IMG/VR virus record: IMGVR_UViG_3300020446_000006
Span: 1-64,000 of that record
Source of the DNA: a virus
DNA: 64,000 nucleotides
Reading direction: 5' to 3' (one strand)
The notes below the pieces were generated by a model. That model made no database searches. It was not told the DNA's origin and saw only the letters and a program-made list of their open reading frames with translations. Within the stretch, counting starts at the first letter, position 1; the number at the start of each line of letters is the position of its first letter. Of this stretch, positions 1 to 49,924 are shown in pieces. Made by a program: the position numbers and the translations under genes.

Positions 1-2
1 GC

Positions 3-641
3 ATTTGCTCTATAATAAAATTCTTCTGAATCTGCTTGAGTAATTAGGAACTTACCTTCAGCGGTTCTAAAATCTAGTCCGGCAACGTCAATCGGTGTAC
101 CTACGACAAGATTGTGCTGATCGTTAGTCGTAACTTTAATTAAGTCTGAACCATTAACAGCTTCAATCTTTACGACATTGTTAAGTGCTGTGTCGCCGTC
201 AGCGACGTAAAATGATGGTACGTTATTTGAAAGTTCGAGTGTTTCCCATTTTGTTGGCTGCAAACCATATTCAAAGTCAGTATCGATTAGATTTTCAGGA
301 GTTGATACACGAATCTTATGTACGGGGTCGAGAAGCGCATCTGACACTTCCATTTCGTTTTCAGGATGATCTACAATAATTTGTAACTTAGAACTATCGT
401 TTAACCCTAATGCGGATAAATCTTGCTCTAATGTAATGGTTGTATGTTCTGTTTGCTGATTAAATGTGACTTCTTTATATCCTCTAGCGACATCAGCAAA
501 ATTAAAGAGTATAGTTCCTCCAGTTACGGGGTCAGCATGTGTAATTAATTGAAATTGTTCACCACGATAAAAACCTTTTATAGTAACCTTATCGCTATCT
601 ACATTCAATGAGTAATTTGTTGCGAGTAATTTTTTTGCCAT
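3..641 (-). CDS. Conserved virion structural protein of marine T4-like phages (runs off window edge; not in ORF track)
   Basis: Hand translation from ATG at 641: MAKKLLATNYSLNVDSDK...DPVHKIRVSTPENLIDTDFEYGLQPTKWE...; open to position 3. I recognise the LIDTDFEYGLQxTKWE motif from marine T4-like structural proteins. Confidence 0.7.
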   Translation of the reverse strand, partial: MAKKLLATNYSLNVDSDKVTIKGFYRGEQFQLITHADPVTGGTILFNFADVARGYKEVTFNQQTEHTTITLEQDLSALGLNDSSKLQIIVDHPENEMEVSDALLDPVHKIRVSTPENLIDTDFEYGLQPTKWETLELSNNVPSFYVADGDTALNNVVKIEAVNGSDLIKVTTNDQHNLVVGTPIDVAGLDFRTAEGKFLITQADSEEFYYRAN

Positions 642-645
642 GTTT

Positions 646-927
646 TTATCCTAATGCAATTGCGAATGCTATAGCGTTTGCTTGTGATACGCCACCACCC
701 CCACCGCCTGATAGGTTAGGTATACTAATTGTTTCACCTTGCGCACTTAAATTTTGTAAAGAAGCAAGACCAGTTACTTCAAGCTGCCCTTCAATATCCA
801 CATCGCCATCGACGTGTGCATTATTTGACATATGAATATCTCTAAATTTGAAAGCAGTATGACCAAGGTCAGCATTTGTGTGACCGGGAATTAATCCATC
901 TTCTACTCTGAACGCTGCTTTAGCCAT
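646..927 (-). CDS. Small virion or fibre-associated protein with poly-Gly linker and C-terminal AIAFAIALG
   Basis: 93 aa ORF with RBS (GGAG) and a late promoter just upstream; C-terminal AIAxAIALG is typical of small marine phage structural proteins. Confidence 0.6.
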   Translation of the reverse strand: MAKAAFRVEDGLIPGHTNADLGHTAFKFRDIHMSNNAHVDGDVDIEGQLEVTGLASLQNLSAQGETISIPNLSGGGGGGVSQANAIAFAIALG

Positions 928-946
928 GTGAACTCCTATTTAACCT

Positions 947-954
947 TATTTATA
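947..954 (-). promoter_or_regulatory. T4-type late promoter TATAAATA
   Basis: TATTTATA on + strand, about 20 nt upstream of the 927 start. Confidence 0.75.
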
Positions 955-1444
955 TCGTTTCGAGGGTGATTCTTTCTACACCAAATTTCATACCGGCAAA
1001 CCCTTGAGGATCGGCTTTTAAAGATATCGTACCACTGTTATACTCTGCATCATAAGTTACGATTGTACTAGCACCATGCAAAAGTGTTGCATAAGAAGTT
1101 AAGGTTGCAGTCGAATCATCATGTGATACTAATATCTCTTGTGTTTGATGCTGACTGTCGCCTGAAGTTTGTGCAGATACAATATACTTCGCTGTACGAA
1201 TAGATGCACCACTAAATGTATCAATGGTTGTTTCTGCAGAATCAGCAATTGTTTGTGTTCTTCTTCTGATATCTCCTCTTGCCTGAATATAATTTGAATC
1301 AATTGTCGAGAGATCTTGTCTTGCTCGAATGTAGGCAGAATCAATATGATCAGTGTTAGCAGGCGGTGCTAGTCCTGCTTTAATATCTACAGTGTCACCG
1401 TCTCGAGTCAGTATGCTTGCAAATAATCTAGCTTTTGATGGCAT
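950..1444 (-). CDS. Tail-fibre-associated structural protein
   Basis: Two DSxYIxAR motifs, then an IDTF...RTAKYIV...QEILVSHD...YATL domain common in marine T4-like fibre proteins. Confidence 0.6.
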   Translation of the reverse strand: MPSKARLFASILTRDGDTVDIKAGLAPPANTDHIDSAYIRARQDLSTIDSNYIQARGDIRRRTQTIADSAETTIDTFSGASIRTAKYIVSAQTSGDSQHQTQEILVSHDDSTATLTSYATLLHGASTIVTYDAEYNSGTISLKADPQGFAGMKFGVERITLETI

Positions 1445-1454
1445 GGTTATGTCC

Positions 1455-2024: not shown

Positions 2025-2032
2025 TTTATTTC

Positions 2033-4207
2033 CTAAGCTGAATCAAATTCGATCATACCATTAAATTGATAGTGTGGGCTGGCATAAAATCTTGTTTCAG
2101 ATGAGAAGGCATGTGTTCCATGAGATACGTAACCTATGGCTCTATGACGGCCGTAACCATACACGTTTACACCGGACCCATGTCTCCAATTTTTGGCAGT
2201 ATATTCAGCATTATCTGAGTCTTTAGTGTATACGACTAGATTGCCATAGTCATCTCCGAAGCCACCATCGGGCCCAATTTGTCCACGGCCAGCGCTTACC
2301 AATATGGTGTTACCACTAGGACTCATGCCAACGGCTCCTCCATAATACCATGCATAGTTATAAGCTCCGTTTCCATAATCGGCATTCCATTGAACACCAT
2401 TAAACCCTGCTACACCATGACAATCCTGTGGTACAAGAACTTGTGTTATACTCCAAGTATCTCCTGTTCGTTCCATAACAAAAGCCGCACCTAGACTGTA
2501 ATTACTTCCGGACCCTCTGCCATATGTATATCCAGCTCCTGCCACTACTTTTGTGCCAGCATCATTCATTGCAAGACAATGACCTAAATTAATTCCATTT
2601 ACAGCAGATGCATCAATGTAAGGAACAACAGTTGATCCATCATTATATTTTGCGCCACTCCATACACCTGGATCAACTTCTATGTTACCTATATTGGACC
2701 AAGTAAAGTCATTTGCACTATCTCGTTTATAAAAAGAAACACCACCCATTGCCTGGCTTGACCAAGAACCGGTACCTTTTCTGTTCGGTTCACCAACTGC
2801 TAGAGTTAAGGCATCTCTTGACATATCCAAAGAGGTGCCAAAATAATTATTACTTTGAGAGACAGGACTTGTAATAAGTTGTCTGTGTGTTATAGCATTT
2901 GCTTCTGTTATTTTTTTAGTTTTATCTCTTGTTACAAATTCAACCGCACCTGCTCCACTCACACCATTATCCGCATACTTATTTGACCATACAATAAAGG
3001 TAGCAGAATCATTACATGCAACTTGAGTTGCATATGTATCCCCATGCATCTGTGAGGTGTAGTAATTTGTAAGTCTGCCTCTATATTGGCTAGTAGTGGT
3101 ATGTGATCCACTTCCTGAATTATAGGTATAAGATGGAAGCTCAATATCGCTATCAGATTGTTCAAAAATTAGAGGTCCGAGACTATACCCTATAGTTCCT
3201 CCAGCATTTTGTTGGGTGTCACTATTTGTGCCACCAATAAACATATAGTAATTGCCCGGTCCTCCACCACAAGCACCACCGGCACTTAAATGCTGGTGTG
3301 TATTTCCATGATATGTACTACCATAATCACCGTCAAGACTTGTATTGAACTCTTGTTTTGGATCAACGTAACTAGCGGATGATACAGTTCCTATAACACC
3401 ATGCTCATTTCTCTTCAACATGGAAAATCCACTAGACCAGTAGCTAGAGCTTCCACTGTAGTACTCATATGCACTTCCAAAAATACCTATACCGTTTGTT
3501 CTGTCAAAATAAGTATCAAGACCCGCAGTGTACGCATATGTCAGTCCTGCAGTTCCCATGTTTCTTTCACTTACACTGTCATAAGCAGTGACAGGTGTTC
3601 CATATTGCAGCTTAAAAGTAACGGCATTAGATACAGTAGTCGCACCATCATTTACACTAAATGTGACAACACCCGTTTCAGTGGTTGCATTCGCTTCTGA
3701 TTTAGGCGTGATTGTAAATATAGACGAGTCTTGTGTTATGGTTGCCATACCATCAAAGTTTGTATCCTTACTAAAACTAAAAGTAAGTACAGCAGCCGAA
3801 TCGGCATCAGTGGCTGTAAGCCTTACCTCAGTCGTTGCTCCATTTTTGGACAACGATACAATACCTTCTGGACTTACAGATAAAGATGGAGACTGATTTT
3901 GTGGAGTAACAGGAAACCAGCCTGTACCAACTGAATAGTACAACTTATTATTCTGTTCAACATAACCAAGACTTCCCTCATTTGATGCGGCTGATGTAGG
4001 TAAATCTGATAAGAGAGTGTATGATGTTACACCACCTCCACCTCCTCCACCTGCACGTGCAGAAACATAGTCTGAATCTATAAGAGCAAGTACCGCAGCA
4101 GAATCTGTGCCACCTAAAGTTTCTACAGTAGAAGAATCGTAAAAGTTCGCTTCAATTTTAAGACCAGCTGCACCTAAGAGACTTGCGATATTTCTATTCT
4201 TGCTCAT
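2033..4207 (-). CDS. Virion protein with Ig/cadherin-like module and FG-GAP-like beta-propeller (paralogue 1)
   Basis: FGTSLDMSRDALTLAVGEP, LGHCLAMNDAGTKVVAGA and YGGAVGMSPSGNTILVSA blade repeats; N-terminal module shared with 16766-18889 and 18916-20817. Confidence 0.7.
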   Translation of the reverse strand: MSKNRNIASLLGAAGLKIEANFYDSSTVETLGGTDSAAVLALIDSDYVSARAGGGGGGGVTSYTLLSDLPTSAASNEGSLGYVEQNNKLYYSVGTGWFPVTPQNQSPSLSVSPEGIVSLSKNGATTEVRLTATDADSAAVLTFSFSKDTNFDGMATITQDSSIFTITPKSEANATTETGVVTFSVNDGATTVSNAVTFKLQYGTPVTAYDSVSERNMGTAGLTYAYTAGLDTYFDRTNGIGIFGSAYEYYSGSSSYWSSGFSMLKRNEHGVIGTVSSASYVDPKQEFNTSLDGDYGSTYHGNTHQHLSAGGACGGGPGNYYMFIGGTNSDTQQNAGGTIGYSLGPLIFEQSDSDIELPSYTYNSGSGSHTTTSQYRGRLTNYYTSQMHGDTYATQVACNDSATFIVWSNKYADNGVSGAGAVEFVTRDKTKKITEANAITHRQLITSPVSQSNNYFGTSLDMSRDALTLAVGEPNRKGTGSWSSQAMGGVSFYKRDSANDFTWSNIGNIEVDPGVWSGAKYNDGSTVVPYIDASAVNGINLGHCLAMNDAGTKVVAGAGYTYGRGSGSNYSLGAAFVMERTGDTWSITQVLVPQDCHGVAGFNGVQWNADYGNGAYNYAWYYGGAVGMSPSGNTILVSAGRGQIGPDGGFGDDYGNLVVYTKDSDNAEYTAKNWRHGSGVNVYGYGRHRAIGYVSHGTHAFSSETRFYASPHYQFNGMIEFDSA

Positions 4208-4236
4208 ATAACATTTCCTTCAAAAATACTTTACTC

Positions 4237-4244
4237 TATTTATA
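4237..4244 (-). promoter_or_regulatory. T4-type late promoter TATAAATA
   Basis: TATTTATA on +, downstream of the gp23 terminator and upstream of the 4207 start. Confidence 0.8.
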
Positions 4245-4257
4245 CAAAAATGGTGTT

Positions 4258-4284
4258 AAAAAAAGAGGCAGCCGAAGCTGCCTC
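4258..4284 (-). terminator. Rho-independent terminator after gp23
   Basis: Minus strand GAGGCAGC-TTCG-GCTGCCTC followed by T7; C(UUCG)G tetraloop typical of T4-like terminators. Confidence 0.9.
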
Positions 4285-4305: not shown

Positions 4306-5646
4306 TTATGCGCCGAGGATGTTATCCACGCGGAAGATACGGTAGTACTGGTTTGTCTTAGACGCAGCCAGACCATCACGACCGGACATATTACCTGTAT
4401 CGACGAATGGGTTTGAAACCATGCCGTAACGGGTTTTAAATCCAATCTTTGGCTGGAATGTGTCTTCACCAACCGCACGAACCATTGTTAATGGTACGTA
4501 TGGACAGTAGAACAATCCGGCATCGTATGGGTTTGTACCCTTATAGCCAACGTTAATGAAGTCTTGTGTGGCATATGGGTCGATGTACACACGCATGCGA
4601 CCATTCAGTACACCTGCGAAGGTGTTTCCTGTGTCGTCTACGTTTAGTGTTGTTGTCATTGCAGGTGCGTAGTCCAACATGCCTGAAGCTGCGAGAGCAG
4701 AAGCTACGTCTGATGAACAGACGATAAAGTTACCTTTACCTCTCCGTGTCTCTTTAGCAATTGCATTGGCTTCACGCTCGATCTGCATGATCAGACCTTT
4801 GAACTTCTCAACTGACCAACGACCATCGGCATCTGTCTGTACGTCGAAGATACCATTGATTGCTGTGTTAGTTGTGTTTGCACCAGTCTTAGCTTGTGAG
4901 TTGATTGTACGTACAACTTCACGGTTGATTTCAGCCATGATTTCTGTTGACAGAATGTTTGCAAGCTCTGTCTCAGCATCCAGACCATGAATTGCTTTCA
5001 GGTCTTGTGCCAGTTCCAGAGTGTATTCTGCTTTCAGTGCACGTGACTTGGCAGTCACAGTTGCTTTTTCAATGGTGAAGCCCATTTCAGCAAAGTCAGA
5101 TGCACCTGTTGAACCAAGTGCTTCAGCTTTTGCTGTAGCCATACCACCACCGAAGTCAGGACCTTGACGCTCGTTATCGATGCTTGAGTCATTATTTGCA
5201 TCTACCTTATCGCCAAGACCAGAAGCGTCTGAGTCTTGTGTTCCGGCTGAATCACCTGCATAGCCTGTGATTGCTTCGCCGAATAGAGCTTCGTTGCCTG
5301 CAGTTGCACCTGCACGAGTTGTCTCGTACTGTGACTTCATGGCAAAGATCAAACCTGTTGGACCAGACATTGGCTGAACGCCACAAATATCATAAGCCAT
5401 CAAGTTTGGCATTGCACGACGGACAAGAGCGATAAGAACTGGGTTCCAGTTCGCTACGTCCGCAGTTGAGTTTGCTGGGACCGCTTCATGAAGCTGAGCA
5501 GACTGCTCTTTCATTTCGCGTTCCTGGTTTTCCAGAACAGCTGCTGTTACAGCTTTCCGGTGCTGATCTTGAATAGTGCCTGCTGACTCTTCGTTCAGTA
5601 CAGGTGCCCACTTTTCAATCAGCTGATCGTAAGATACGGTATTCAT
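4306..5646 (-). CDS. gp23: Major capsid protein
   Basis: LVRRAMPNLMAYDICGVQPMSGPTGLIFAM, TAKSRALKAEYTLELAQDLKAIHGLDAE, FYCPYVPL, FQPKIGFKTRYG. Confidence 0.98.
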   Translation of the reverse strand: MNTVSYDQLIEKWAPVLNEESAGTIQDQHRKAVTAAVLENQEREMKEQSAQLHEAVPANSTADVANWNPVLIALVRRAMPNLMAYDICGVQPMSGPTGLIFAMKSQYETTRAGATAGNEALFGEAITGYAGDSAGTQDSDASGLGDKVDANNDSSIDNERQGPDFGGGMATAKAEALGSTGASDFAEMGFTIEKATVTAKSRALKAEYTLELAQDLKAIHGLDAETELANILSTEIMAEINREVVRTINSQAKTGANTTNTAINGIFDVQTDADGRWSVEKFKGLIMQIEREANAIAKETRRGKGNFIVCSSDVASALAASGMLDYAPAMTTTLNVDDTGNTFAGVLNGRMRVYIDPYATQDFINVGYKGTNPYDAGLFYCPYVPLTMVRAVGEDTFQPKIGFKTRYGMVSNPFVDTGNMSGRDGLAASKTNQYYRIFRVDNILGA

Positions 5647-9629: not shown

Positions 9630-9637
9630 TATTTATT
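9630..9637 (-). promoter_or_regulatory. Late promoter variant AATAAATA upstream of gp20
   Basis: TATTTATT on +, overlapping the gp19 stop codon. Confidence 0.6.
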
Positions 9638-14763: not shown

Positions 14764-15959
14764 TAGTTATTCTCCGGATCACCGAATGGATTATCTTCAC
14801 TAAAGTCAAGGAAGTCATCGACGGTAGTTGCTGAGAATATCTCATTCTGTTCGGTTTCTGATATCTTATTCAATTCTACAACGCTCTTTATTTCAAGACC
14901 AGTAATACTGTTATTAGTACTATTTATTAGTACACCATCGGCCGCGGCAAACGGAGGTAATGCTGAATCTTGTATGAATGTATGATACAATCCGTCATCA
15001 GCACCGACATGTGCAAGATAGATATGTCTAGATGAATCACCAGAAGAATCGAGTAGGATTCTTTGTATTTCACCAGACATCTTCACACCACTTGAGAATG
15101 TCTGTGTTACTGTATCGCCGACTGCAAAATCACTATCGACAGCAGATCCACCGATAAAGTTAATCGTAGGTGGTACACTATAACCATCTCCAGAGTCTGT
15201 AATCGTAATTGTACCGATTGCACCAAATGAATCAACTGTTGCCGTTGCTGCCGCGCTATCTCCAAGTACGATTGTATCACTGCTATCTGCAATAATTTGC
15301 AGAGTTGGCGGTGTTGTGTAATATCTGCCACCTTGTATTAGTGTAATTGCGCCAACATGATCACTGTCTAGAGTAATCGTAGCTGTAGCTTTCTTCGGCG
15401 CTTTTACTTCAATTACATATTGATATGTGCCAGACTGTTCGATATCTTGAATTGCAGCAATACTTGTATCGAAATCTTCTCCACTGTATTCGAAAAGGTT
15501 ACAGCGAAGTTTAAAAACCGGAAGATTTTCAATCTGATAGAATGGTTGTTCATGTTCTACATGGCCTATTTCAAACATTTTGTTTGTCAATGGTATGTAG
15601 ATCAAGTCACCTTCAACAGGTCTGTCTGCCACAATATCGTTATCAGGTCTACTAACCTGTGCTGCAAACCGAGAACGTGCAACTACGAGAGTTACTTCAT
15701 CTCGTATCTCAACACCGAACCTTGTAAATAAATCTCCTTCACCGTCAAAGCCTTCGACATTCTCAATGTACATTTCAATTTTATGAGATGTCGGAAAGCG
15801 AGATGTTGGATCTTCTCCAAGAAGAACATCTTCGCTTACAAGATCTCTTGGTAAATAATAAACGTCTTGACCATATATCTTGAGAGCCTCAATTACGAGG
15901 TTCTCATACATGTCCATTTCTGATCTGACTTTTTCTGAGAAGTAAAAGTTACGAGCCAT
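14763..15959 (-). CDS. gp14: Neck protein with inserted DS-rich beta domain
   Basis: IYGQDVYYLPR, GFDGEGDLFTRFGVEIRDE, RPVEGDLIY, FEYSGE, C-terminal DFSEDNPFG. Confidence 0.93.
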   Translation of the reverse strand: MARNFYFSEKVRSEMDMYENLVIEALKIYGQDVYYLPRDLVSEDVLLGEDPTSRFPTSHKIEMYIENVEGFDGEGDLFTRFGVEIRDEVTLVVARSRFAAQVSRPDNDIVADRPVEGDLIYIPLTNKMFEIGHVEHEQPFYQIENLPVFKLRCNLFEYSGEDFDTSIAAIQDIEQSGTYQYVIEVKAPKKATATITLDSDHVGAITLIQGGRYYTTPPTLQIIADSSDTIVLGDSAAATATVDSFGAIGTITITDSGDGYSVPPTINFIGGSAVDSDFAVGDTVTQTFSSGVKMSGEIQRILLDSSGDSSRHIYLAHVGADDGLYHTFIQDSALPPFAAADGVLINSTNNSITGLEIKSVVELNKISETEQNEIFSATTVDDFLDFSEDNPFGDPENN

Positions 15960-25603: not shown

Positions 25604-25605
25604 CT

Positions 25606-33407: not shown

Positions 33408-34884
33408 TATTGCACTCGGCCCACATGATCAAAATACATATGATGGCTCTTTTCATAATCAAATAGAACGATTTAGTAGAAAAAAGCACAACGTACCATG
33501 GCATCATGACGTGTATCCACATCATTCTGAATTGACAAGAATGAACCGTGATGATAACAGATACATGATGAAGTTTTATAATGAGTATTGGAAACCAGAA
33601 GATCATGAAATCTTTTGTTTTACCACAACAGTCGGTGGTATGAAGATGCTTCGAAACGGTAATCAAAACATTGATCAAGATTTTTTAGATTTTAAACCAA
33701 AAAAACTGTGGGATTATTTTCGAAAAGATAACATATACTATATCGATCATCATCAGTCGCATGCAGCATATGCCTTCTTATCTTCTTGCTTTACAGAGTC
33801 AGATATCTTATCGATTGACGGTCGAGGCTGGCATTATAACTGCGTCTTCTTTGATAAGAACGGAAACATGACAGATCTATCTGATAAGATGGGTATCGGT
33901 ATACTTTGGGATTATTTTTCGAAAGCAGTCGGGTTCGGTCCTCTTGGTGCTGGAAAGTTAATGGGTCTTGCTGCACATGGCAGTTATTCTCCTGAATTTC
34001 ATATGATTATTGATTACTATTCGAATAATAATTTTAATTTTCCTGAGTTTGATATATCGAAGTTTAAACAAGAAGACATCGCGTATACGCTACAGTATGC
34101 AACTCAAGAATTAGTTAATGAACATGTGATACCTTTACAGTCATGTGATAATATATGTGTTGCTGGTGGCGTGGCATACAATGGCTATATGAATGAAGAG
34201 TTTACAAAGTACTACAGTGGTGTACATGTACCACCTGCACCAGGAGATGAAGGACAATCACTTGGCACTTATATGCATGCCGATTATGTTCTAAATAAAA
34301 ATAAACATGTGCCGAATGTGTATGCTGGAAAAGAATATACATTCGATGAAGGTGATGAGATTACTTCTCGAGAAGTTGCAGAAGCAATCGCAAATGGTAA
34401 AATTGTCGGTTGGTTTAACGGCAAATCCGAATCAGGTAATCGAGCACTCGGCAATCGAAGTATACTTGCAGATCCTCGTAATCCGAATATCAAAGACATT
34501 ATTAACCATACGATAAAACAAAGAGAAGATTTTAGACCATTTGCTCCAGCAGTACTTGAGCATCATGCACAAACATTCTTTGACACAAATCAGCCAAGTC
34601 CTTATATGTCTCGTATCATGCCGGTAAAATCAGATAAAATACCGGGTGTAACACATCTTGATAACACTGCGAGAATACAGACCGTAAGCCGTATACAAAA
34701 TGAAAATTTCTATAGACTCATTGAAGACTTTTATCAATATACCGGCATGCCGATGTTATTGAATACGAGTTTTAATTGTAAAGAGCCGATAGTTGAAACG
34801 CCTGAAGATGCGATCAACACATTTAACAGAACTAAACTTGACATGTTGGTAATTAATGGACGTAGTGTGCGTAAAATGGGGTGA
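33394..34884 (+). CDS. O-carbamoyltransferase (NodU/CmcH/TobZ family)
   Basis: DHHQSHAAYAF, IDGRG, GKLMGLAA, AGGVAYN, GDEGQSLG, RALGNRSILADP, RPFAP, LNTSFN. Confidence 0.93.
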   Translation: MNIFSIALGPHDQNTYDGSFHNQIERFSRKKHNVPWHHDVYPHHSELTRMNRDDNRYMMKFYNEYWKPEDHEIFCFTTTVGGMKMLRNGNQNIDQDFLDFKPKKLWDYFRKDNIYYIDHHQSHAAYAFLSSCFTESDILSIDGRGWHYNCVFFDKNGNMTDLSDKMGIGILWDYFSKAVGFGPLGAGKLMGLAAHGSYSPEFHMIIDYYSNNNFNFPEFDISKFKQEDIAYTLQYATQELVNEHVIPLQSCDNICVAGGVAYNGYMNEEFTKYYSGVHVPPAPGDEGQSLGTYMHADYVLNKNKHVPNVYAGKEYTFDEGDEITSREVAEAIANGKIVGWFNGKSESGNRALGNRSILADPRNPNIKDIINHTIKQREDFRPFAPAVLEHHAQTFFDTNQPSPYMSRIMPVKSDKIPGVTHLDNTARIQTVSRIQNENFYRLIEDFYQYTGMPMLLNTSFNCKEPIVETPEDAINTFNRTKLDMLVINGRSVRKMG

Positions 34885-35530
34885 CAAGTTTAGTCACGAG
34901 CATGTCAATCGATTGTATCGAATGGTATGTAAAAACTTTCATACTGATTTTAGATTTGTATGTCATACAGATAATCCTGAAGGGATACATAATGACGTAC
35001 ACATTATACCTTTGCCAGACTATGATCTCGAAAAGTGGTGGTGGAAATTAGCGCTATTCGAAAACATTTCAGAAACTCAAATATATTTAGATTTAGATGT
35101 CATAATACAAAAAGACTTTACACATTTTCAAGATTATGTCGTAGAAGATAAATTATGTTTAGTAAAAGCATATTGGAAACCATATGTAAGTGATGTAAAG
35201 TTTGAATTCGATGTCGATATCAATTCATCTATTATGATATGGAAAGGCGATCTTCGACATATATGGAAAGATTACGATGTAGAATACTGCAAATTTAAAT
35301 ATGAAGGAATAGATAGATATCTTTACTATGACAAAGGTGAACATTTAGTGTATATACCAGAAGGTGAATTATATTCTCGTAGATATGGTTTAGATTGGGA
35401 AAACTTTAATTTATTTGGGCTCGAAGATAAATTATACAAAGACGAAGACAAAACAATCTGTATCTTTGATGGGTGGAAATTAAGATTTGGAGATGAGGCA
35501 TATGATGGATTCGAAGAATACTATAATTGA
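34856..35530 (+). CDS. GT-A glycosyltransferase-like protein
   Basis: VVCVKWGDKF...VNRLYRMV, WWKLALF, YLDLDV (DxD), INSSIMIW. Confidence 0.75.
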   Translation: MDVVCVKWGDKFSHEHVNRLYRMVCKNFHTDFRFVCHTDNPEGIHNDVHIIPLPDYDLEKWWWKLALFENISETQIYLDLDVIIQKDFTHFQDYVVEDKLCLVKAYWKPYVSDVKFEFDVDINSSIMIWKGDLRHIWKDYDVEYCKFKYEGIDRYLYYDKGEHLVYIPEGELYSRRYGLDWENFNLFGLEDKLYKDEDKTICIFDGWKLRFGDEAYDGFEEYYN

Positions 35531-36191
35531 TCCTATATATTTTAATGTCTGGTGGGAAGCAATACAAAAAGGCTATGACGCTAAGACTTTGTTGTATAGT
35601 ATAGGCCCTGATCAGTTAGAATCAAAAAACCATTTGTTTAAATTGTTAACAACACCATTGCCTGGAAAAAGAGAATACTGTCCTGCTACAGAATTATATT
35701 ACAAAAAAGATCTACATATACAGATTTATGGCGGCTGGTTTGGATATCCTTTAATTGACATGCTTGTTGATACCTTTTCAAATATATCTAGAATTACTAA
35801 TATCGATATAGACTCGAAAGCTTTAGATCTTTGTAGGAAATTTACTGTGGAAAAAAATCTAAGTGATATAGTATTTTTTAAAGAAAGAAATGTTGCTGAT
35901 ATTATTGAGACATCACATAATAAAGACAGAGACATTCGACTTGTAATTAACACATCATCTGAACATATGCCCGATTTACCTGTATTGATACAAAATAAAA
36001 CATATACAGATAATTGTGTCTTTGCGCTACAAAGTAATAATATGTTTCATGTTGTAGATCAACATATAAATTGTTCTAACAGTTTAAACGAATTTGTAGA
36101 GAAAACAGGACTGACAAAAATATTTGTTGCTGACACATATAAAATGCAGAATGGTTATGAGAGATATACTGTTATAGGAAATCATGAATAG
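35487..36191 (+). CDS. Class I SAM-dependent methyltransferase-like protein
   Basis: IYGGWFG (motif I-like), NIDID, VINTSSEHM, ALQSNN; start codon uncertain. Confidence 0.6.
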   Translation: MEMRHMMDSKNTIIDPIYFNVWWEAIQKGYDAKTLLYSIGPDQLESKNHLFKLLTTPLPGKREYCPATELYYKKDLHIQIYGGWFGYPLIDMLVDTFSNISRITNIDIDSKALDLCRKFTVEKNLSDIVFFKERNVADIIETSHNKDRDIRLVINTSSEHMPDLPVLIQNKTYTDNCVFALQSNNMFHVVDQHINCSNSLNEFVEKTGLTKIFVADTYKMQNGYERYTVIGNHE

Positions 36192-37029
36192 AACAATCAT
36201 AAGTCTTTATATTGACATACCAAAAGAAAACCTGGTATCTCATCATGAATCAAAACTGAAGTTTAACGATAACCACGCCTGGCTCGTAGATAAACAAGAA
36301 GAGTATGCAGATAAAATCGGTGTAGATTTTTCTCATTTCGAATATGAAGATGGCTATGAGGAATATCGTGATTGGTTTCAAAAAGAATATCCTGAAGTTT
36401 CTGAATATAACATAGTAAATTTCTTTAAGATCAAATTACTATATGATATGACTGAGTTATATGATGAGATTCTGTATCTTGACATTGATGTGATTCCTGT
36501 AACAAATGAAAACTTCTTTGATGTGTTTGATTTAAACAAAGGATTCGCCATACTGACAGGAACTGCAAGATCGCAAAGAGCATGGATTAATCCACTAACA
36601 GAGGCTGTAGTAGGCAGACATGGAGTAAGATCTCCTTTAGCAAAATATTGGAATACCAAATTAATGTTATCGATGGAAGGTCATAGTAGAGATTCTGAAG
36701 TATTCAATACAGGTATTATCGGCATTACTAGTAAGCAACTTAAAGAACTTGACTATTTTTCAGAATTTAGATCATTACTTGATTATATGACAGAGATACA
36801 AAACAATAGTGAGATACCCGATAACCTCAGAAAGCTGTGTGGTTACGATAACGAGACGATATGGGGCTACAAAACTTTACTTAAAAATCTTTCTTATCAG
36901 GAGCTCGGTGAGTATTGGCATGTGTTTATGGATAACCATAGCTTTGTACCAGAAAAAGCAAAGTTGGTGCACTGTGTAAATAAAGATTTTGATTATGTGA
37001 GAAACTGGTGTGAAAAGAATAATATTTAG
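36184..37029 (+). CDS. GT-A glycosyltransferase-like protein
   Basis: YDEILYLDIDVIP (DxD), VFNTGIIG, DNET, VHCVNK. Confidence 0.75.
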   Translation: MNRTIISLYIDIPKENLVSHHESKLKFNDNHAWLVDKQEEYADKIGVDFSHFEYEDGYEEYRDWFQKEYPEVSEYNIVNFFKIKLLYDMTELYDEILYLDIDVIPVTNENFFDVFDLNKGFAILTGTARSQRAWINPLTEAVVGRHGVRSPLAKYWNTKLMLSMEGHSRDSEVFNTGIIGITSKQLKELDYFSEFRSLLDYMTEIQNNSEIPDNLRKLCGYDNETIWGYKTLLKNLSYQELGEYWHVFMDNHSFVPEKAKLVHCVNKDFDYVRNWCEKNNI

Positions 37030-37606
37030 CATATGGCAAGACACAGACTGGCGTGACTATAAAGATCTGTTAGTAAACAAGCAACGAGAATACGCAGAGT
37101 TTTGTGATGCCGATTATCATTGTATCGAGTATGACAGCTTTGAGTTTAGTCGATTACAGTTCGAAAAACTTAACTGGGCAGATCATTATTTAGATTTTTA
37201 TGATGAAGTATTATATCTCGATTTAGATGTAATACCTCGAAAGAACATGTCATTCTTTGAAAAACATGATCTCAATACATTTTGTGTTCATTATACAATG
37301 AAGCCTGATTGGAAGATTAAAGCGAAAAACGATGCGCTAGGCTATCAAGGTAAGAATAAGATTGCAAATACAGGTGTTTTTGGTTTAAATCAAAATCTTA
37401 AGGGTATGCTAACAAAGGAACATAACTTCGATAACAACGAAGTTTTTGTATCATACCTAATTGAAAAGGATAAAATCCCTTGCACTGAAATTTCAGGTGC
37501 GTGGAACTTTATCCTTGATAAAAATTATCGTAAGTATAGTGAAGCTCACTATTTCTTACATGTATCTAATAAAGATTTTATTTCCTACCCGCTAGAGCGA
37601 TACTAA
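37010..37606 (+). CDS. GT-A glycosyltransferase-like protein (paralogue of previous)
   Basis: YDEVLYLDLDVIP, IANTGVFG, NNEV, LHVSNK. Confidence 0.72.
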   Translation: MKRIIFSIWQDTDWRDYKDLLVNKQREYAEFCDADYHCIEYDSFEFSRLQFEKLNWADHYLDFYDEVLYLDLDVIPRKNMSFFEKHDLNTFCVHYTMKPDWKIKAKNDALGYQGKNKIANTGVFGLNQNLKGMLTKEHNFDNNEVFVSYLIEKDKIPCTEISGAWNFILDKNYRKYSEAHYFLHVSNKDFISYPLERY

Positions 37607-39029: not shown

Positions 39030-39707
39030 TTATGCTACTGTTGGATCGTTACTCGTAGATAAAAAATATCCGTCTAATACTATAGTTCCGGTTTCATCTT
39101 TTACTGTAAATCGCTTTGCATTATCAAGTTCATATCGATCGCTATCCATAATTAATTTTGTAACTTCTAAATTTGTTATGGTTGCACTATCAATCACTGC
39201 GCTATCGATATCTGCAAACCCAGCTGTCAAACGATTTACTCTTGCCGAATCAATTGCCAAAGATGTAATTGTTGCATTTGAAATTGTGGCGCTATCAATA
39301 GTTAGAATTGCTCCTGGATCTACGCCGATACTATCGACATTAATTGTTGCAAATCTTGCACTATCTGCAGTCATCAGTCCGGTTACGTCTAGATTCCGAA
39401 TAGTCGCTGAGTCTATCGTAGCACTGTCTGCTGTGAGAGTACCAACTCGAAGTCTTTTAAAGGTTGCAGAATCTCCGTCAAATCCTGTAACTAGCAATGT
39501 GCCTGGAGGAGTACCGAATAGTTTATTGTTAATACTATCAAAACTTATAGCCAACTGATTCATAGCAGAAACTAAGTTTGAATCTGAATTTAGAAAAAAG
39601 GCAGCATCTAAATCATCAAGATCGCCCATAAAATCAGACATGAGATTTGTCTTGGCCATAAAGGTGCCAATTGCATCTACGAGATCTACGTGTATTTTTC
39701 TAGCCAT
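39030..39707 (-). CDS. Fibre/whisker-like protein with DSATI repeats
   Basis: N-terminus paralogous to the next gene; repeated (I/A)DSA(T/R)I units. Confidence 0.65.
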   Translation of the reverse strand: MARKIHVDLVDAIGTFMAKTNLMSDFMGDLDDLDAAFFLNSDSNLVSAMNQLAISFDSINNKLFGTPPGTLLVTGFDGDSATFKRLRVGTLTADSATIDSATIRNLDVTGLMTADSARFATINVDSIGVDPGAILTIDSATISNATITSLAIDSARVNRLTAGFADIDSAVIDSATITNLEVTKLIMDSDRYELDNAKRFTVKDETGTIVLDGYFLSTSNDPTVA

Positions 39708-39718: not shown

Positions 39719-40540
39719 TTAGATACTATCTATATCGAGTTGGATAGCCGCAAAATAATTTTCTGTACTTGTTGAATCAGTTAATAAGAAAGGCCTTGCG
39801 TGTTGAAATGTAATCGGTCCTTGAGAATCATTTAAAGTCAATCGTTTAACTCCTGTTGTACCGATTGTCGCCTTTGTAATATTAACACCTGAATCGCCAC
39901 CACTATCCGATATAAACTGACCAATAGTAATTTTACTTAATACTAATGCACTGTCAACTGTAACATCTTCACCTTTCATTGACAAATTTTTAAATCTTAT
40001 AGTACTAGTACTATCAAGAGCAGTAAGCCTTCCTATGACTCCGCTGTCTCCAACATACAAGCGAGTCATAGACATACTGTCTGGATAATTATCTAATTCT
40101 ATTACAGTTAAATTTCTAAATCTGGTACTGTCAGAGAAATAATCATGACTGATACCACCATCAGAATCACCGAACCATAAATTTGCTGCTTGCCCTTGAA
40201 AATCACCGGGACCTGGCATAGCGCTATCATAATTGTATAAAGACCTAACTGTAATTTTATCAAACTTGCCAGAGTCTGCACCGATTTTTGCTTTAAATCC
40301 AGTGATCTTTTCGGTACCATTAATTAAGCCATCAAGTATGTTTTTAAGATTATCAGCAAAGAGATTCATGCCGCTGACGAGATTTGAATCTCGATCAATT
40401 AGACCTGAATAAGGTGGATCTCCAGGATCAAATGTAGTATCAAGATCATCTAGATCTCCGATATAATCGGACATCTCGTTGACTTTTTGTCTCCATACGT
40501 CAATTGTATTTGCTAAATTGATTGTGACTTTACGTGCCAT
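39719..40540 (-). CDS. Fibre/whisker-like protein, DS-rich
   Basis: MARKVTINLANTIDVWRQKVNEM..IGDLDDLD...NLVSGMN fibre N-terminus. Confidence 0.65.
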   Translation of the reverse strand: MARKVTINLANTIDVWRQKVNEMSDYIGDLDDLDTTFDPGDPPYSGLIDRDSNLVSGMNLFADNLKNILDGLINGTEKITGFKAKIGADSGKFDKITVRSLYNYDSAMPGPGDFQGQAANLWFGDSDGGISHDYFSDSTRFRNLTVIELDNYPDSMSMTRLYVGDSGVIGRLTALDSTSTIRFKNLSMKGEDVTVDSALVLSKITIGQFISDSGGDSGVNITKATIGTTGVKRLTLNDSQGPITFQHARPFLLTDSTSTENYFAAIQLDIDSI

Positions 40541-40740
40541 TATAACTTCTCTAAGATCTGTTTCATCATATGTTTGAGCTCAGACACGTCAGTCTTTAAC
40601 TCTTGGAGTTCCGCCTGTTTTTCTTTCCATGCCTTCTTTCTGGCTCTTGCTGCTTCTATCTCTGTCGAGTTTGTATTCAATACAACACCGTCTTCATTTT
40701 TAATTAGGCCTTGATGGCCGTCAACATTTTTCCATTTCAT
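40540..40740 (-). CDS. Small conserved coiled-coil protein downstream of VrlC-like gene
   Basis: GVVLNTN...ELKTDVSELKHMMKQIL; typical position in marine T4-like phages. Confidence 0.65.
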   Translation of the reverse strand: MKWKNVDGHQGLIKNEDGVVLNTNSTEIEAARARKKAWKEKQAELQELKTDVSELKHMMKQILEKL

Positions 40741-46300: not shown

Positions 46301-46310
46301 TTTCTAGCCC

Positions 46311-47657
46311 TTAGAATTGAATAATAACTTTGATGTCTTCTGCTTGCGAAGTTGTACGTGAAACAGGCGCTCTGTTGTCTATGTATAGTAGATCTCCGGA
46401 CTGTTTATCGACTTGAGATTGTATTAAACTCGAATCGATAATGCCTTGACCGGCTCCATTGAGCTCTTCAATAACTTCACCATCTTGAAACGGAGTAAAT
46501 CCAGTTTCGTCTGTTTGGTGGTAATAAATTTCATTTGAATCAATAAAGTCGACATACGCTTGTGCGTTTGAAGTTTGACCTTCAAGTATCTTATCGACAG
46601 TAAAGTTTGTCACAATGCTTGAAAGAGTCATATGATTTAGAGCGTTACCTGTTGTATTTGTAAAGAGGTTTCCGTTTTTATCTCGTGGATTTTTCAATAG
46701 ACCAATTTGTCTAAAGTCCTGATTCACATAGAAATTACTGTCAGTTCCCTCAATCATAGTATGGAACATGACAGCAGAAGACTTAAGATCTACTCGTGGA
46801 TCAGCACCGACACCCGAATCTGAGAATGGTAAAATTGCTCGAGCTGTAGCTCCGGAGCCGCCACCTCCACTGATTGTTACAGTGGCTGTAGAGTAACCAC
46901 TACCATGTGCAAGTGTAGAACTATCTGGATCCATTTGTATACGAGTTACTTCTCCAGTTGCAGAATCAATTACTGCCGATGCCGATGCTCCTGTACCAAA
47001 TCCTCCGATTGTAACAGTTGGATTTGATGTATAATTCTGTCCGTTTGATGTTAATACGATCGAAAGAACTGCTCCACTAATTGCATGATCTTGCACTTCA
47101 GCTTGTTTTAACTCAATACCAGTTGAATTTGAGTCTGTGGCACCTTGTAATTTAACAGGAATAAAATTAGATGATTGAAATTTTTCTTGATCAGCCGCAG
47201 AAATTGTATACATAAATTTCCATACATATCCATCTGCTGTACGGAAAGAATGTATATTTGAACCAGTTGGTTCTACAGTTGATGGCTGTGCAACACCTTG
47301 TTTATTACGACCGACTTCAAGACAAACATAAACTTGATTATTATCAGTTTTTACGTAATAAGGAAGTGTTGGATATCCTTGTACACGATCGTCATACGGA
47401 GAATAAATACGACCATTTGACCAGTTATTACGTGGTGCTACAAGTGAAGACCCTTGCATTCTTTTAATTGATTGCAAACCATCTCTAAAATCTGATTGAG
47501 TTTCAGGATTATTAGTTGGAGTCGGAACAGTTTCGAAAGAATCCCACTGTTCTGATCGACCAATACCTACATAATAGTTTGCTGTTCCTAGCGAGAACTG
47601 GTCAAAGAAGTCTCGAGCAATCTGTCTTTTAAGTGTATCTGTAATTACTGCTGGCAT
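46311..47657 (-). CDS. gp8: Baseplate wedge subunit
   Basis: YYVGIGRSEQW, PRNNW, VYVCL, DGYVWKFMYTI, DFRQIGLLKNP, SGDLLYIDNR...EDIKVIIQF. Confidence 0.9.
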   Translation of the reverse strand: MPAVITDTLKRQIARDFFDQFSLGTANYYVGIGRSEQWDSFETVPTPTNNPETQSDFRDGLQSIKRMQGSSLVAPRNNWSNGRIYSPYDDRVQGYPTLPYYVKTDNNQVYVCLEVGRNKQGVAQPSTVEPTGSNIHSFRTADGYVWKFMYTISAADQEKFQSSNFIPVKLQGATDSNSTGIELKQAEVQDHAISGAVLSIVLTSNGQNYTSNPTVTIGGFGTGASASAVIDSATGEVTRIQMDPDSSTLAHGSGYSTATVTISGGGGSGATARAILPFSDSGVGADPRVDLKSSAVMFHTMIEGTDSNFYVNQDFRQIGLLKNPRDKNGNLFTNTTGNALNHMTLSSIVTNFTVDKILEGQTSNAQAYVDFIDSNEIYYHQTDETGFTPFQDGEVIEELNGAGQGIIDSSLIQSQVDKQSGDLLYIDNRAPVSRTTSQAEDIKVIIQF

Positions 47658-47670
47658 TTTCTATATCCTA

Positions 47671-48906
47671 TTAAGTACTAATTGCGGCGCCAAGCGCAAT
47701 ACGCTTGTAAGAACCTGCATCGCTATCAAAAACCGCAAGACATGGATTACCTGATGCGCCATTTGATACGAAAATTAATTTACCATGTTCACCTGTTGGA
47801 ACTGTATTAACTGTGTAATTTCGAAGATCAACTTCAACTGCACGCGCTTTTACATAATCAGAATCAACTGTAGCAGGTATATCATCGGCAGCAATCATAT
47901 CTCTCTTAATTGAGAACCATCCTTGATCATCGTATAAATTAAATCGATTTGAATCCTTATGATAAGATATTGATCCCTTACCTCTGAATTTAGACAAGTT
48001 AATGGTTGAGGTAAGACCAGCAGTATTGACTGTAGGTACTGCTAATGTTCCTGTATTATTAGTTGAATCAAATCCAAAATTAAATACGGTTTGATTTGTA
48101 ACCAGTTCACTTGTTACAATCTCATCAACAGTGGCAAGTTGAATTGTGTTACCACCAAACAGCAAGCCTCCGCCATTTGTAGAAGCATAGCTTCCTGTTC
48201 TGTCCGGACCGGTAAGAAATCCTGCACCAACAAAGAATCCGTTTGATGAATCTATAGAAACGTTATTTTCGCCTAAAGAAACCGGTTGTGAGAACGTAAA
48301 GTTTGTTCCATCAAATCCAAGTCTTTCGCCTGCAAGATGAATTGTAGTACCAGAAAGATACAGGTCTTTCCACTTAAAGTTTGAATCACCTAAGTCGTAT
48401 GTGCTATCGACAGATGGAACAATGTGGCCTGCATGTGCTGTGAGGTTTGGTGCATCAACTCTTAAATTGACATATGCAGAATCGACAATTAAAGCTACTT
48501 CGGCAGAATCAACAGAATTAGATTGAATAAGTGTAAGAGTACTGGCAGAATCAAATGCTGTACCAGTAAGCAGTGAAATATAAGTAGAATCAACAATACT
48601 TGTAATGTCAGCTGTAAGAGCGACAGTACCTGAACTATCAGGCAATACAATTAAATTATCACCAGTCGGATCGATTACACCAAGTGATGTTTCATGTGAG
48701 TCTGCTGTAACACCTTCGAATACAATGACCTTTGTTCCAAAGGCGATACCGTCTAGACCGCCTGCAGAACCAGATGCAACTTGTAATGCCGCAACATCTG
48801 TATACAGCTCGTCGAAGTTGTCATTAATTTTAATCGCACCAGTCCGGAGATCATCACCAGTTCCATCATTACCGGATGTGCCTATGTCGATAATTTGTCT
48901 TGCCAT
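47671..48906 (-). CDS. Baseplate wedge / fibre connector with gp9/gp10-type N-terminus
   Basis: IDIGTSGNDGTGDDLRTGAIKINDNFDELY is the gp9/gp10 N-terminal motif. Confidence 0.75.
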   Translation of the reverse strand: MARQIIDIGTSGNDGTGDDLRTGAIKINDNFDELYTDVAALQVASGSAGGLDGIAFGTKVIVFEGVTADSHETSLGVIDPTGDNLIVLPDSSGTVALTADITSIVDSTYISLLTGTAFDSASTLTLIQSNSVDSAEVALIVDSAYVNLRVDAPNLTAHAGHIVPSVDSTYDLGDSNFKWKDLYLSGTTIHLAGERLGFDGTNFTFSQPVSLGENNVSIDSSNGFFVGAGFLTGPDRTGSYASTNGGGLLFGGNTIQLATVDEIVTSELVTNQTVFNFGFDSTNNTGTLAVPTVNTAGLTSTINLSKFRGKGSISYHKDSNRFNLYDDQGWFSIKRDMIAADDIPATVDSDYVKARAVEVDLRNYTVNTVPTGEHGKLIFVSNGASGNPCLAVFDSDAGSYKRIALGAAIST

Positions 48907-48931
48907 ATCTTATCCTATAAAACTATAACTC

Positions 48932-48939
48932 TATTTATA
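48932..48939 (-). promoter_or_regulatory. T4-type late promoter TATAAATA
   Basis: TATTTATA on +. Confidence 0.8.
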
Positions 48940-48949
48940 ATAGAAATCA

Positions 48950-49924
48950 TCACTTTCTAAAATATACTCTTGAACTAAAGTCATCTAATGTTGATGAGAA
49001 GCGAATTGCAGATGCATTTGCTGAATCAGCAAAATCGTCAAACGATGCATAGAATCCGCCCCATTCATAAACCTTATTGTAGTATTTTTGCACATCTGCA
49101 ATCGTAAGACCAGGATAGTCATTAAGATTGCGATATATGCTATAACGATCACGCAGTGTGTCACTATCAAGACCATCGTAAAGCGGTGAAAGAGAAGGCG
49201 GTTCTGATAGTGCACCAATTACCTCACCTTCTGCATTACTCGTAAGAGTTGCTTGTGAGTGAAGAAGGCTTCTACCTGTATTTGGATCAGAAATCGATTC
49301 TGCTGTACCGATAGTTAATTGAGGCTGAGCTTCGAGTGTAACGGATGCTCCGAGAAAAAATCCAGCAGGATGTACAAAGTTTCTATAAAGTTCTTCCCAT
49401 TCAACAATTGGTAAAGGTGCTTTAATTAATGTCGAAAAGATTTGATTTATTCCACCATCTTGTAGCTTAAATCCTTCTTCTTCACCTATCGATGATTGTG
49501 ATACTCGAAACAGTTTTTCTTTCGGATATATAATTTCAATTTCTTCTTGGAAGAAAGCTCTAAAGAAACCATGTACAGAATATTCAGAACCTTTAACCCG
49601 AAAGAAATTACCGAAGTTGCGAAGTGCTTCTCTTGGATTTGTGAAGAAACTGTTTGAAACACCAAGAGCAATCTCATCAAACATAAAGTCAAGAAATTCA
49701 AGTTTTGCATCTTCAACGTCTCGAATTGTTTGTAGCTCTTGAATAATACCGCCGAAAGTATCTGCTGAATCAAGATGTTCGTAATATGCATCTAAAAAAG
49801 TTACGAGATTCGGATAATCTTCTCGAAAATGTTCTGGTAAAACTTCATCTACCAGACTCTTTCTTATATTTGTACCTATGCGACCGTAGTCGCGAGTGGT
49901 CTGTGCAAAACCTGTATGAGCCAT
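48950..49924 (-). CDS. Baseplate wedge protein (short gp7-like)
   Basis: LPEHFREDYPNLVTFLDAYYEHL, FFRVKGSEYS..FFR, FVHPAGF; follows gp6. Confidence 0.7.
   Translation of the reverse strand: MAHTGFAQTTRDYGRIGTNIRKSLVDEVLPEHFREDYPNLVTFLDAYYEHLDSADTFGGIIQELQTIRDVEDAKLEFLDFMFDEIALGVSNSFFTNPREALRNFGNFFRVKGSEYSVHGFFRAFFQEEIEIIYPKEKLFRVSQSSIGEEEGFKLQDGGINQIFSTLIKAPLPIVEWEELYRNFVHPAGFFLGASVTLEAQPQLTIGTAESISDPNTGRSLLHSQATLTSNAEGEVIGALSEPPSLSPLYDGLDSDTLRDRYSIYRNLNDYPGLTIADVQKYYNKVYEWGGFYASFDDFADSANASAIRFSSTLDDFSSRVYFRK

Follow-up and report, generated by a model that had tools for sequence, protein, structure and literature searches.

In tailed phages, assembly of the virion proteins takes place in the cytoplasm. 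Mycobacteriophage virions are glycosylated, and phage glycosyltransferases encoded beside structural genes decorate exposed virion proteins, a process for which we know of no defined two-residue sequon. This glycosylation is alluded to in PMC11256854. In Bacteroidota, the O-glycosylation motif D-(S/T)-(L/I/V/T/A/S/M) has an obligatory Asp before the modified Ser/Thr (PMC12871550), refuses Glu and is statistically over-represented among the proteins that it targets (PMC12871550, PMC8550257). In staphylococci, SdgA/SdgB attach sugars to SD repeats (PMC3794999). In pelagimyophages, a 'host recognition cluster', a variable island with fibres and glycosyltransferases, lies between VrlC and the neck gene (PMC7029224); the searched parts of that paper make no mention of a dipeptide bias.

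We analyzed positions 1 to 64,000 of the IMG/VR record IMGVR_UViG_3300020446_000006 (hereafter the window), which derives from an uncultured T4-like phage; the phage and its homologues come from marine metagenomes. Proteins were classed as peripheral virion, core virion or other by annotation and not by DS count. The dipeptide Asp-Ser (DS) exceeds chance two to five times in the fibres and other outer virion proteins (Table 1) of this phage and of many metagenomic relatives, a pattern that is apparently new to the literature; to our knowledge, no such dipeptide bias has been reported. The preliminary description of this DNA had proposed an order-specific DS enrichment confined to surface-exposed virion proteins, and all its hand counts of DS were reproduced by our recount. 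The peripheral virion proteins contain 152 DS vs 61.1 expected (observed/expected ratio, O/E, 2.49; z 12.6) and only 72 SD, which is at expectation (DS vs SD, p = 1e-7); the order specificity held. After composition correction the O/E stays at 2.5-4.8 and not near 1, and z is still 11-13 when residues are shuffled within blocks of 6 to 40. DS is the strongest outlier among all 400 dipeptides, and DT, ES, DD and DV are depleted. In the DS-rich set, where DS occurs 154 times (52.8 expected), ES occurs 6 times (21.3 expected) and DT 28 times (52.7 expected); DT and ES, described earlier as not similarly enriched, are in fact underrepresented.

The proposed confinement to surface proteins was correct in that no enrichment was found elsewhere. 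The O/E is 0.85 for the core virion proteins, an annotation-based class, and 0.85-0.94 as a baseline in outgroup phages. DS is lacking from gp19, gp21, gp48 and the plus-strand ORFs at 60548-63052, and occurs once each in TerL, gp6, gp53 and the 674-aa gp5 part. An O/E of 0.26 for the gp6 family is not relied on because its sequences are mostly truncated and related. The DS O/E of the non-peripheral proteins is 0.77, but with SD at a similar 0.75 this is not a DS-specific avoidance, nor is there one in the non-virion proteins. The claim needs a qualification, as some peripheral proteins show no excess, such as the VrlC-like protein 42314-46300 (7 DS vs 8.1 expected) and 38078-39019 (0 vs 2.0).

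Table 1. DS-bearing features and candidate modifier genes in the window (DS counts are given against expectation where available)
Feature	Position	Strand	Description
164-aa protein	950..1444	-	5 DS including DSAYIRAR, DSNYIQAR
Propeller-type virion protein	2033..4207	-	724 aa; 11 DS; N-terminal module DSAAVLALIDSDYVSAR; ends EFDSA
Major capsid protein loop, aa 132-154	5185..5253	-	contains all three capsid DS
Neck-protein C-terminal accessory domain, aa 198-331	14967..15368	-	part of neck protein 14763-15959
FG-GAP propeller protein	16766..18889	-	707 aa; 10 DS; N-terminal module DSDNIIALIDSGYIANR; ends WFDSGS
FG-GAP/Big_9 propeller protein	18916..20817	-	633 aa; 7 DS; ends LYDSA
Long tail fibre	20819..25621	-	1600 aa; 45 DS vs 13.4, z 9.4
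Second fibre protein	25606..27138	-	510 aa; 10 DS vs 5.3
Plus-strand island, conserved core	34856..37606	+	candidate modifier genes
phrog_1962 glycosyltransferase	34856-35530	+	island core
Methyltransferase-like gene	35487-36191	+	island core
GT8 glycosyltransferase	36184-37029	+	conserved DxD motif
198-aa protein without assignment	within 34856..37606	+	island core
Small fibre 'DSa'	39030..39707	-	225 aa; 12 DS vs 2.5; 3 SD
Small fibre 'DSb', DSa paralogue	39719..40540	-	273 aa; 14 DS vs 3.0; C-terminus DIDSI
Baseplate wedge gp8	46311..47657	-	448 aa; 8 DS vs 3.2
gp9/gp10-like baseplate or fibre-connector protein	47671..48906	-	411 aa; 13 DS vs 3.8; two DSxYVxxR modules
Baseplate wedge subunit	48950..49924	-	324 aa; 3 DS; homologues O/E 2.0

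The excess recurs in homologues from the first 74 related viral contigs examined, with an O/E of 2.3 for homologues of the second fibre protein in related loci and 3.7 for those of the gp9/gp10-like protein. HTVC008M, Syn9 and Kolga do not have it and C48C1 shows it only weakly; it is not common to all marine T4-like phages and is clade-specific. Within the major capsid, neck and sheath proteins, DS is restricted to one region: the three capsid DS share a loop (Table 1), all 9 DS of the neck protein fall in the accessory domain and none in the conserved neck domain (aa 13-177), and the 7 DS of the sheath protein lie within aa 62-260. The C-terminal DS of all three propeller proteins, pointed out previously, was confirmed. 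Judged by the shared N-terminal module and FG-GAP matches, the three look like paralogues with a common C-terminal motif, and therefore their endings were not counted as three independent events.

The sites share the motif [V/I/A/F]-D-S-[A>D>S,G,N], with V, I, A or F at -1 and Ala (4.1x) or Asp (2.3x) enriched at +1. The residue after DS is A in 55 cases, D in 27, S in 18, G in 15, N in 13, V in 2 and L in none, and it is never K, R, Y or W; DSD accounts for 27/152 sites, and DSD, DSG or DSN for 36% of the class-A sites. The motif is placed at the repeat starts of fibres, at strand-end or turn positions of gp8, and in an 18-residue junction module (9+9), DSxxVxxLIDSxYVxAR, common to at least six proteins. 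In the long fibre, about 10 copies of (V/I)DS(A/D)Y(V/I)xAR mostly have an upstream DSAxVxxLI partner, and DUF4183-like domain repeats carry DS at fixed positions (FTADSGQTLFTG, TLxxAADSGDxL). DSa consists of ~15-residue repeats, each opened by DSA. Its family comprises 169 metagenomic homologues, across which the invariant columns are those of DS(A), and the proteins differ by insertion or deletion of whole repeat units, each marked by DS(A). Asp and Ser are lost jointly in aligned homologues: DT replaces DS in 2 of ~1200 aligned cells, and ES does so in a single alignment column. The Ser codons at DS (105 TCN, 49 AGY) show the mix seen at Ser elsewhere, which places selection at the protein level, as had been argued from the use of both codon families. 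A DNA-level repeat or recombination motif was rejected, since the DS codons and ten DSAYVxAR copies differ at synonymous sites.

A confident structural model was obtained for gp8 (pLDDT 85.7). The protein matches the Pfam Phage-Gp8 family at its C-terminus and T4 gp8 by Foldseek (1n7z_A, E 3.8e-9, probability 1.0), and both this fold and its position beside gp6/gp7-10-type genes place it in the T4 gp8 family. In the model, 7/8 DS sites are in loops or turns, in agreement with the expected surface position. At D231, D245 and D373 the Asp closes a strand and the Ser opens a hairpin turn; four further DS sites are in loops, two of them immediately before helices. Of the 61 clade orthologues, 43-53 retain the DS at seven to eight columns. 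The gp8 orthologues of HTVC008M, C48C1 and Syn9 have the same fold and carry DG, NE, GS, PG, NS, SS and others in these columns, all ordinary turn residues. The DSa repeats were less accessible to modeling: the AlphaFold2 monomer from a 36-sequence alignment has a pLDDT of 56 with the repeat region unstructured, and the Atlas model is as poor. In the PDB, the DSa profile has weak matches to the tail fibre of F2-pyocin (25vf, E 0.009) and to the tail-tip fibre 7z4b (E 0.022); Pfam PF09327 scores 17.9 bits, under the cut-off of 22. These two fibres have similar short repeats, in which a hydrophobic residue is followed by a polar pair, Ala, a residue of any kind and another hydrophobic residue, but their polar pair varies (DN, TT, SN, DG), whereas DS is found here in nearly every unit and homologue. 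A PDB sequence search with the N-terminal 560 aa of the long fibre gave spurious matches only (RecA, tannase).

The gene arrangement is that of the pelagimyophage cluster (PMC7029224): gp8, a VrlC homologue, fibres with GT8 and other glycan genes, and neck genes. The VrlC homologue consists of 42314-46300 plus 40740-42323, with 30% identity to HTVC008M VrlC; between it and the neck genes come the fibres together with the GT8 gene and the phrog_1962 glycosyltransferase. HTVC008M differs from the phage here in having no DS excess. The GT8 assignment is based on PF01501 (26.7 bits; gathering threshold 24.3), and D100 and D102 of the DxD motif are invariant in 12 homologues. The two glycosyltransferases and the methyltransferase are located between fibre genes. 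By gene-order maps read by eye, this cassette is present in ~29/31 DS-rich loci reaching far enough. The same cassette occupies the same position in 37/64 scorable loci whose small fibres show no DS excess (O/E about 1.4, some about 1.0), and thus its co-occurrence with DS richness was rejected as specific support for a modification. None of the other dipeptides is enriched as a substitute or alternative sequon in these DS-poor relatives, where KI, SG and GS rank highest. A second cluster on the contig contains two GT25 genes, O-methyltransferases, a sulfotransferase and a GT8-like gene. The alternative of Asp hydroxylation, also raised in the preliminary description, found no support, as no 2OG oxygenase was detected among the contig ORFs screened against Pfam or PHROGs, a set comprising all but a few, such as those at 60548-64810.

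Our leading explanation, put forward tentatively, is that DS is a structural turn or cap element without covalent modification. What the alignments and counts above establish is the motif with its placement, conservation and clade limits; the purely conformational role is what we infer. DS would be the opening two residues of a short element [V/I/A/F]-D-S-[A/D/S/G/N], in which Asp stands at the end of a beta-strand or ahead of a helix, while Ser and the small residue begin the turn. The clade may assemble its outer virion parts largely from modules opening with this element, namely the ~15-residue DSA repeats, the junction module and the beta-sandwich domains repeated along the long fibre, and may have fixed it also at exposed turns of accessory domains and gp8. 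The dipeptide excess would then come mainly from multiplication and exchange of modules, together with a conserved stabilizing Asx/Ser-type cap or ladder. The context logo, the invariant DS(A) columns of repeats gained or lost whole, and the DS positions in the gp8 model favor this explanation, as does the 25vf/7z4b repeat slot, which reads I-D-N-A-K-I or I-S-N-A-Q-I and hence polar-polar-Ala. It also fits a cassette that is not specific to DS-rich fibres and a dipeptide that is not specifically avoided elsewhere. Because the fibre repeats were modeled poorly as monomers, the ladder or cap geometry is conjectural. Moreover, a pure conformational preference leaves the clade specificity and the spread over unrelated folds unexplained, the outgroup gp8 proteins keep the fold with other pairs, and generic caps tolerate D/N/S/T interchange, yet Asp and Ser are lost together here and hardly ever give way to DT or ES. 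This strict coupling with exclusion of Thr, the spread over unrelated folds, the restriction to outer modules and the clade-specific gains at 7-8 turn positions of orthologous gp8 instead suit the sequon first proposed for DS, and so do the cassette inside the fibre module, the second glycan cluster, and the precedents in Bacteroidota, staphylococci and mycobacteriophages. According to this less likely alternative, DS plus a small residue would be recognized by a cytoplasmic phage transferase that O-modifies Ser with a sugar or other adduct at exposed sites. It is likewise doubtful that such a coat extends over fibres, baseplate periphery, neck and capsid loop with donors from the phage glycan-synthesis clusters, and we consider it unlikely that the clade O-glycosylates or O-modifies exposed virion Ser in the cytoplasm via a DS sequon with sugars of its own clusters. 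The occurrence of the cassette in DS-poor loci and the lack of avoidance in non-virion proteins speak against it, as do the fixed DS positions without turnover and their location within long conserved structural repeats. Modifying Ser every 5-15 residues of a packed trimeric shaft seems sterically demanding, and pelagimyophage glycosyltransferases are presented as host O-chain modifiers in PMC7029224.

The precedents themselves match incompletely. The Bacteroidota pattern is paralleled here by the enrichment of DS, the depletion of ES and DSA as the most frequent tripeptide, but the Bacteroidota system accepts both Ser and Thr, prefers a hydrophobic +1 residue and does not allow Gly, whereas DT is depleted here and Gly and Asp often follow DS; a match to the D(S/T)(hydrophobic) sequon was rejected on these two grounds. 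That system is also periplasmic with exported targets, unlike cytoplasmic virion assembly. SdgA/SdgB offer a cytoplasmic parallel, O-glycosylation of Asp-flanked Ser (PMC3794999, PMC8561734), but act on long unbroken SDSDSD tracts, where the order of the two residues carries no information, whereas DS is isolated here, without long tandem Ser-Asp tracts, and the phage enzymes are GT-A types (GT8, phrog_1962, GT25) and not GT4. Mycobacteriophages are another lineage with other enzymes, and DS modification in the phage here is putative. It is improbable that DS, in many cases within DSD or DSxG, furnishes exposed turns with a series of divalent-cation sites at which Ca2+/Mg2+ rigidify fibres and outer domains. 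Ca2+ and Mg2+ are plentiful in sea water, and the invariant Asp, the enriched Asp at +1 with its DxD-like DSD sites, and the location in turns and loops of a phage from marine metagenomes would be in line with this. However, the commonest form, DSA, supplies one carboxylate only, the known Ca-binding signatures DxDxDG and GGxGxD are not matched, strict Ser over Thr, Asn or Asp is unexpected for a cation ligand, and HTVC008M, Syn9 and Kolga lack the excess in the same ionic medium. More improbable still is a docking or recognition element for another phage protein, or a host ligand contact; the equally improbable partners would be the conserved neighbors 38078-39019 and 37578-38078 or the tail-fibre assembly protein 27357-27701. 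The 313-aa and 166-aa neighbors are syntenic with DS-rich fibres in nearly all loci, and several proteins with no other relation to each other carry the 18-residue module at an N-terminal or junction position, but these neighbors are equally conserved in loci without the excess, and a two-residue contact over eight gp8 loops would be an unlikely code.

Fibres and the baseplate periphery set the host range of the most abundant ocean phages, and their chemistry is almost unstudied. Any phage genome can be screened for the order-specific dipeptide signature, which is limited to the outer virion and one clade, and the 225-aa DSa and gp8 make the choice between structure and modification directly testable by expression and mass spectrometry. 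If DS is structural, it provides a new and easily recognized repeat grammar by which marine fibre genes without a family can be annotated. If DS is modified, the virion would bear a coat affecting adsorption, stability or evasion, and many phage glycosyltransferases would be reassigned. As a sequon, it would direct the coating of a tailed phage of abundant ocean bacteria, and the glycosyltransferases of the pelagimyophage 'host recognition cluster' would gain a new function.

The window is part of a 78-kb viral contig of a marine T4-like myophage, whose structural module it carries. The major capsid protein shares 69% identity with its counterpart in Phage C48C1, 60% with that of Pelagibacter phage HTVC008M and 59% with those of the Melnitz methylophages. 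PHROG and Pfam scans named most genes of the window, among them scaffold, protease, portal, tube, sheath, both terminase subunits, gp15, two neck proteins, gp6, gp25, gp5 parts, gp53, gp48, gp8, a gp9/10-like protein and a split VrlC homologue, which shares 30% identity with VrlC of HTVC008M. The interval from VrlC to the neck genes contains a low-GC island along with fibres and three propeller proteins, an arrangement that matches the 'host recognition cluster' reported for pelagimyophages (PMC7029224). The VrlC split (~1330 aa and ~525 aa, overlapping by 10 bases here) recurs in many relatives, and others carry a single ORF of 1640-1840 aa. Two separate ORFs match the gp5 hub/lysozyme PHROG, and next to the capsid gene is a second gene resembling the tail tube (phrog_45, E 1e-29).

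Coordinates of the features discussed in the text
Feature	Coordinates	Strand
Second tail-tube-like gene	1455-2024	minus
Major capsid protein	4306-5646	minus
Regular gp19	9637-10164	
Long fibre	20819-25621	minus
510-aa fibre	25606-27138	minus
Region of the (E)GTNLYYTxARA motif	20819-27138	minus
Low-GC island	27814-37606	plus
Island head	27814-30059	plus
Island core	34856-37606	plus
313-aa protein	38078-39019	minus
225-aa small fibre	39030-39707	minus
273-aa small fibre, paralogous	39719-40540	minus
VrlC homologue (ORFs 42314-46300 and 40740-42323)	40740-46300	minus
gp8	46311-47657	minus
gp9/10-like protein	47671-48906	minus
gp5-matching ORF	52224-54248	minus
672-aa ORF without family match, between the gp5-matching ORFs	54241-56259	minus
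gp5-matching ORF	56256-57125	minus
Second glycan-related array, outside the window	contig 70.5-75.8 kb (L161:6575-11794)	minus

The Asp-Ser dipeptide (DS) is the most extreme outlier among all 400 dipeptides, and the proteins rich in it have fewer DT, ES, DD and DV than expected. The DS counts of the preliminary description were reproduced without exception, and DT and ES, which it had described as not similarly enriched, are even depleted in the DS-rich proteins. With protein classes assigned from annotation alone to avoid circularity, the 16 peripheral and fibre-module proteins contain 152 DS against 61.1 expected (observed/expected ratio [O/E] 2.49, z 12.6), compared with O/E values of 0.85 in core virion and morphogenesis proteins, 0.55 in island enzymes and 0.72 in the rest of the contig. 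The reverse order, SD, occurs only 72 times in the peripheral class (p = 1e-7). The excess over shuffled controls persisted at z 11-13 after shuffling inside blocks of 6-40 residues, and is therefore unexplained by local composition. Serines of DS are encoded 68% by TCN and 32% by AGY, like other serines, and the ten DSAYVxAR copies differ from one another at synonymous sites, which bears out the earlier proposal that selection acts on the protein. In the DS-rich proteins, 28% of Asp residues are followed by Ser. The VrlC homologue is a large outer baseplate protein, yet it has no DS excess.

DS is preceded preferentially by V, I, A or F, with D and E excluded, and followed by A (4.1x) or D (2.3x), next by S, G and N, and never by K, R, L, Y or W. 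It recurs in four contexts: ~15-residue repeats opening with DSA in the two small fibres; an 18-residue module, DSxxVxxLI-DSxYVxAR, in the long fibre, the gp9/10-like protein, two propellers and a 164-aa protein; fixed positions of repeated DUF4183-like domains in the long fibre; and single turns in globular proteins. Where core proteins have DS, the sites lie in accessory parts, namely the C-terminal extension of the neck protein (all 9), one loop of the capsid protein (3, aa 132-154), aa 62-260 of the sheath (7) and the last 40 residues of gp15 (3). Another motif of the long and 510-aa fibres, (E)GTNLYYTxARA, also occurs in fibre gp108 of Syn9 and in the Kolga (Pelagibacter siphophage) tail fibre (L006:20001-20126; L005:12001-12222), and in the studied phage DS follows it directly (SNLYYTKARTDSD, SNLYYTDARADSA). 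The 313-aa protein, always syntenic with the small fibres and without a family match, contains 0 DS, but 8 DT against 3.2 expected.

The 225-aa small fibre has 169 metagenomic homologues and none among 50,697 isolate phage records. The invariant columns of its family alignment are DS(A), and whole repeat units have been gained or lost between homologues. Among the matches listed from 74 related IMG/VR loci, DS O/E is 4.0 for homologues of this fibre, 4.9 for the 273-aa fibre, 3.7 for the gp9/10-like protein, 2.76 for gp8, 2.3 for the 510-aa fibre, 2.0 for the wedge subunit and 1.1-1.3 for VrlC. An equal enrichment in all marine T4-like fibres, which by the preliminary description would have spoken against its reading, is not seen, because the fibres of HTVC008M, Syn9 and Kolga have an O/E of ~1, the excess in C48C1 is weak and symmetric, and DSAYVxAR is absent from all four.

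The globular gp8, found in every genome compared, allows a column-wise view. The 61 clade orthologues average 8.75 DS in 7-8 columns, each kept in 43-53 sequences. At those columns HTVC008M/C48C1/Syn9 have DG/NE/DN, GS/SP/DG, PG/AN/PN, ES/VN/AG, NS/VD/NA and SS/VS/NN, and their gp8 proteins contain 3-4 DS in total. Clade members without DS at a column have both residues swapped jointly (NA, GN, NG, GL, TS), and DT never occurs in gp8; the 225-aa fibre family has 2 DT in ~1200 aligned cells. In the AlphaFold2 model of gp8 (pLDDT 85.7), which matches T4 gp8 (1n7z, E 3.8e-9), three DS Asp end a strand with Ser opening a hairpin; of the other sites, four are in loops and one is in a strand.

The conserved core of the island comprises a phrog_1962 glycosyltransferase, a methyltransferase-like gene, a GT8 with an invariant DxD and a 198-aa unknown. 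As read off gene-order maps, about 29 of the 31 DS-rich loci long enough to include this core contain it, and HTVC008M, Syn9, C48C1 and a 177-kb relative have no GT8. The island head has three ORFs of ~225-285 aa, two with weak nitroreductase-family matches under the Pfam cut-off, followed by a DegT aminotransferase, a radical SAM protein, a GDSL-like protein and a NodU/TobZ-type carbamoyltransferase. This left half resembles a pathway to a decorated amino sugar and is found in only some relatives. The second array encodes two GT25 glycosyltransferases, an FkbM-type methyltransferase, a rhamnosyl-O-methyltransferase-like protein, a sulfotransferase and a weak GT8-like protein, which together with the island brings the glycosyltransferases of the phage to at least five or six.

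The support for DS as a recognition sequon for post-translational modification, as previously suggested, is circumstantial, and three tests did not support it. A GT8-centred scan gave 80 loci of the same synteny, and in 37 of the 64 scorable ones the small-fibre DS O/E is ~1.4, in some ~1.0, with no substitute dipeptide taking over. As gp8 in these DS-poor loci still has ~2x DS, the trait is graded along phylogeny, not switched by the cassette. Non-peripheral proteins do not avoid DS specifically, since SD is equally low in them and the baseline of outgroup phages is comparable, and DS positions are fixed without turnover in the 225-aa fibre and gp8 alignments. The closest known sequon, the Bacteroidota D(S/T)(hydrophobic) motif (PMC12871550), fails on Thr usage, cellular compartment and the +1 residue, DSL occurring 0 times here and DSD, DSG and DSN being common. 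Asp hydroxylation, another earlier proposal, is unsupported, because the screened ORFs yielded no 2OG oxygenase.

We tentatively rank first a conformational role, with DS as a turn or cap element that would have risen in copy number via the fibre modules, on the basis of the DS position, its neighbours, its invariance at repeat starts and a weak kinship to fibres with polar-polar-Ala slots. Serine O-modification at DS comes second and is rather unlikely, although the clade-specific, cross-fold and strictly D+S character of the pattern is left unexplained by a structural reading. Behind these two, cation sites are improbable and a docking code slightly more so. The DS enrichment is real, strong and clade-wide, and undescribed as far as literature and database searches reach.
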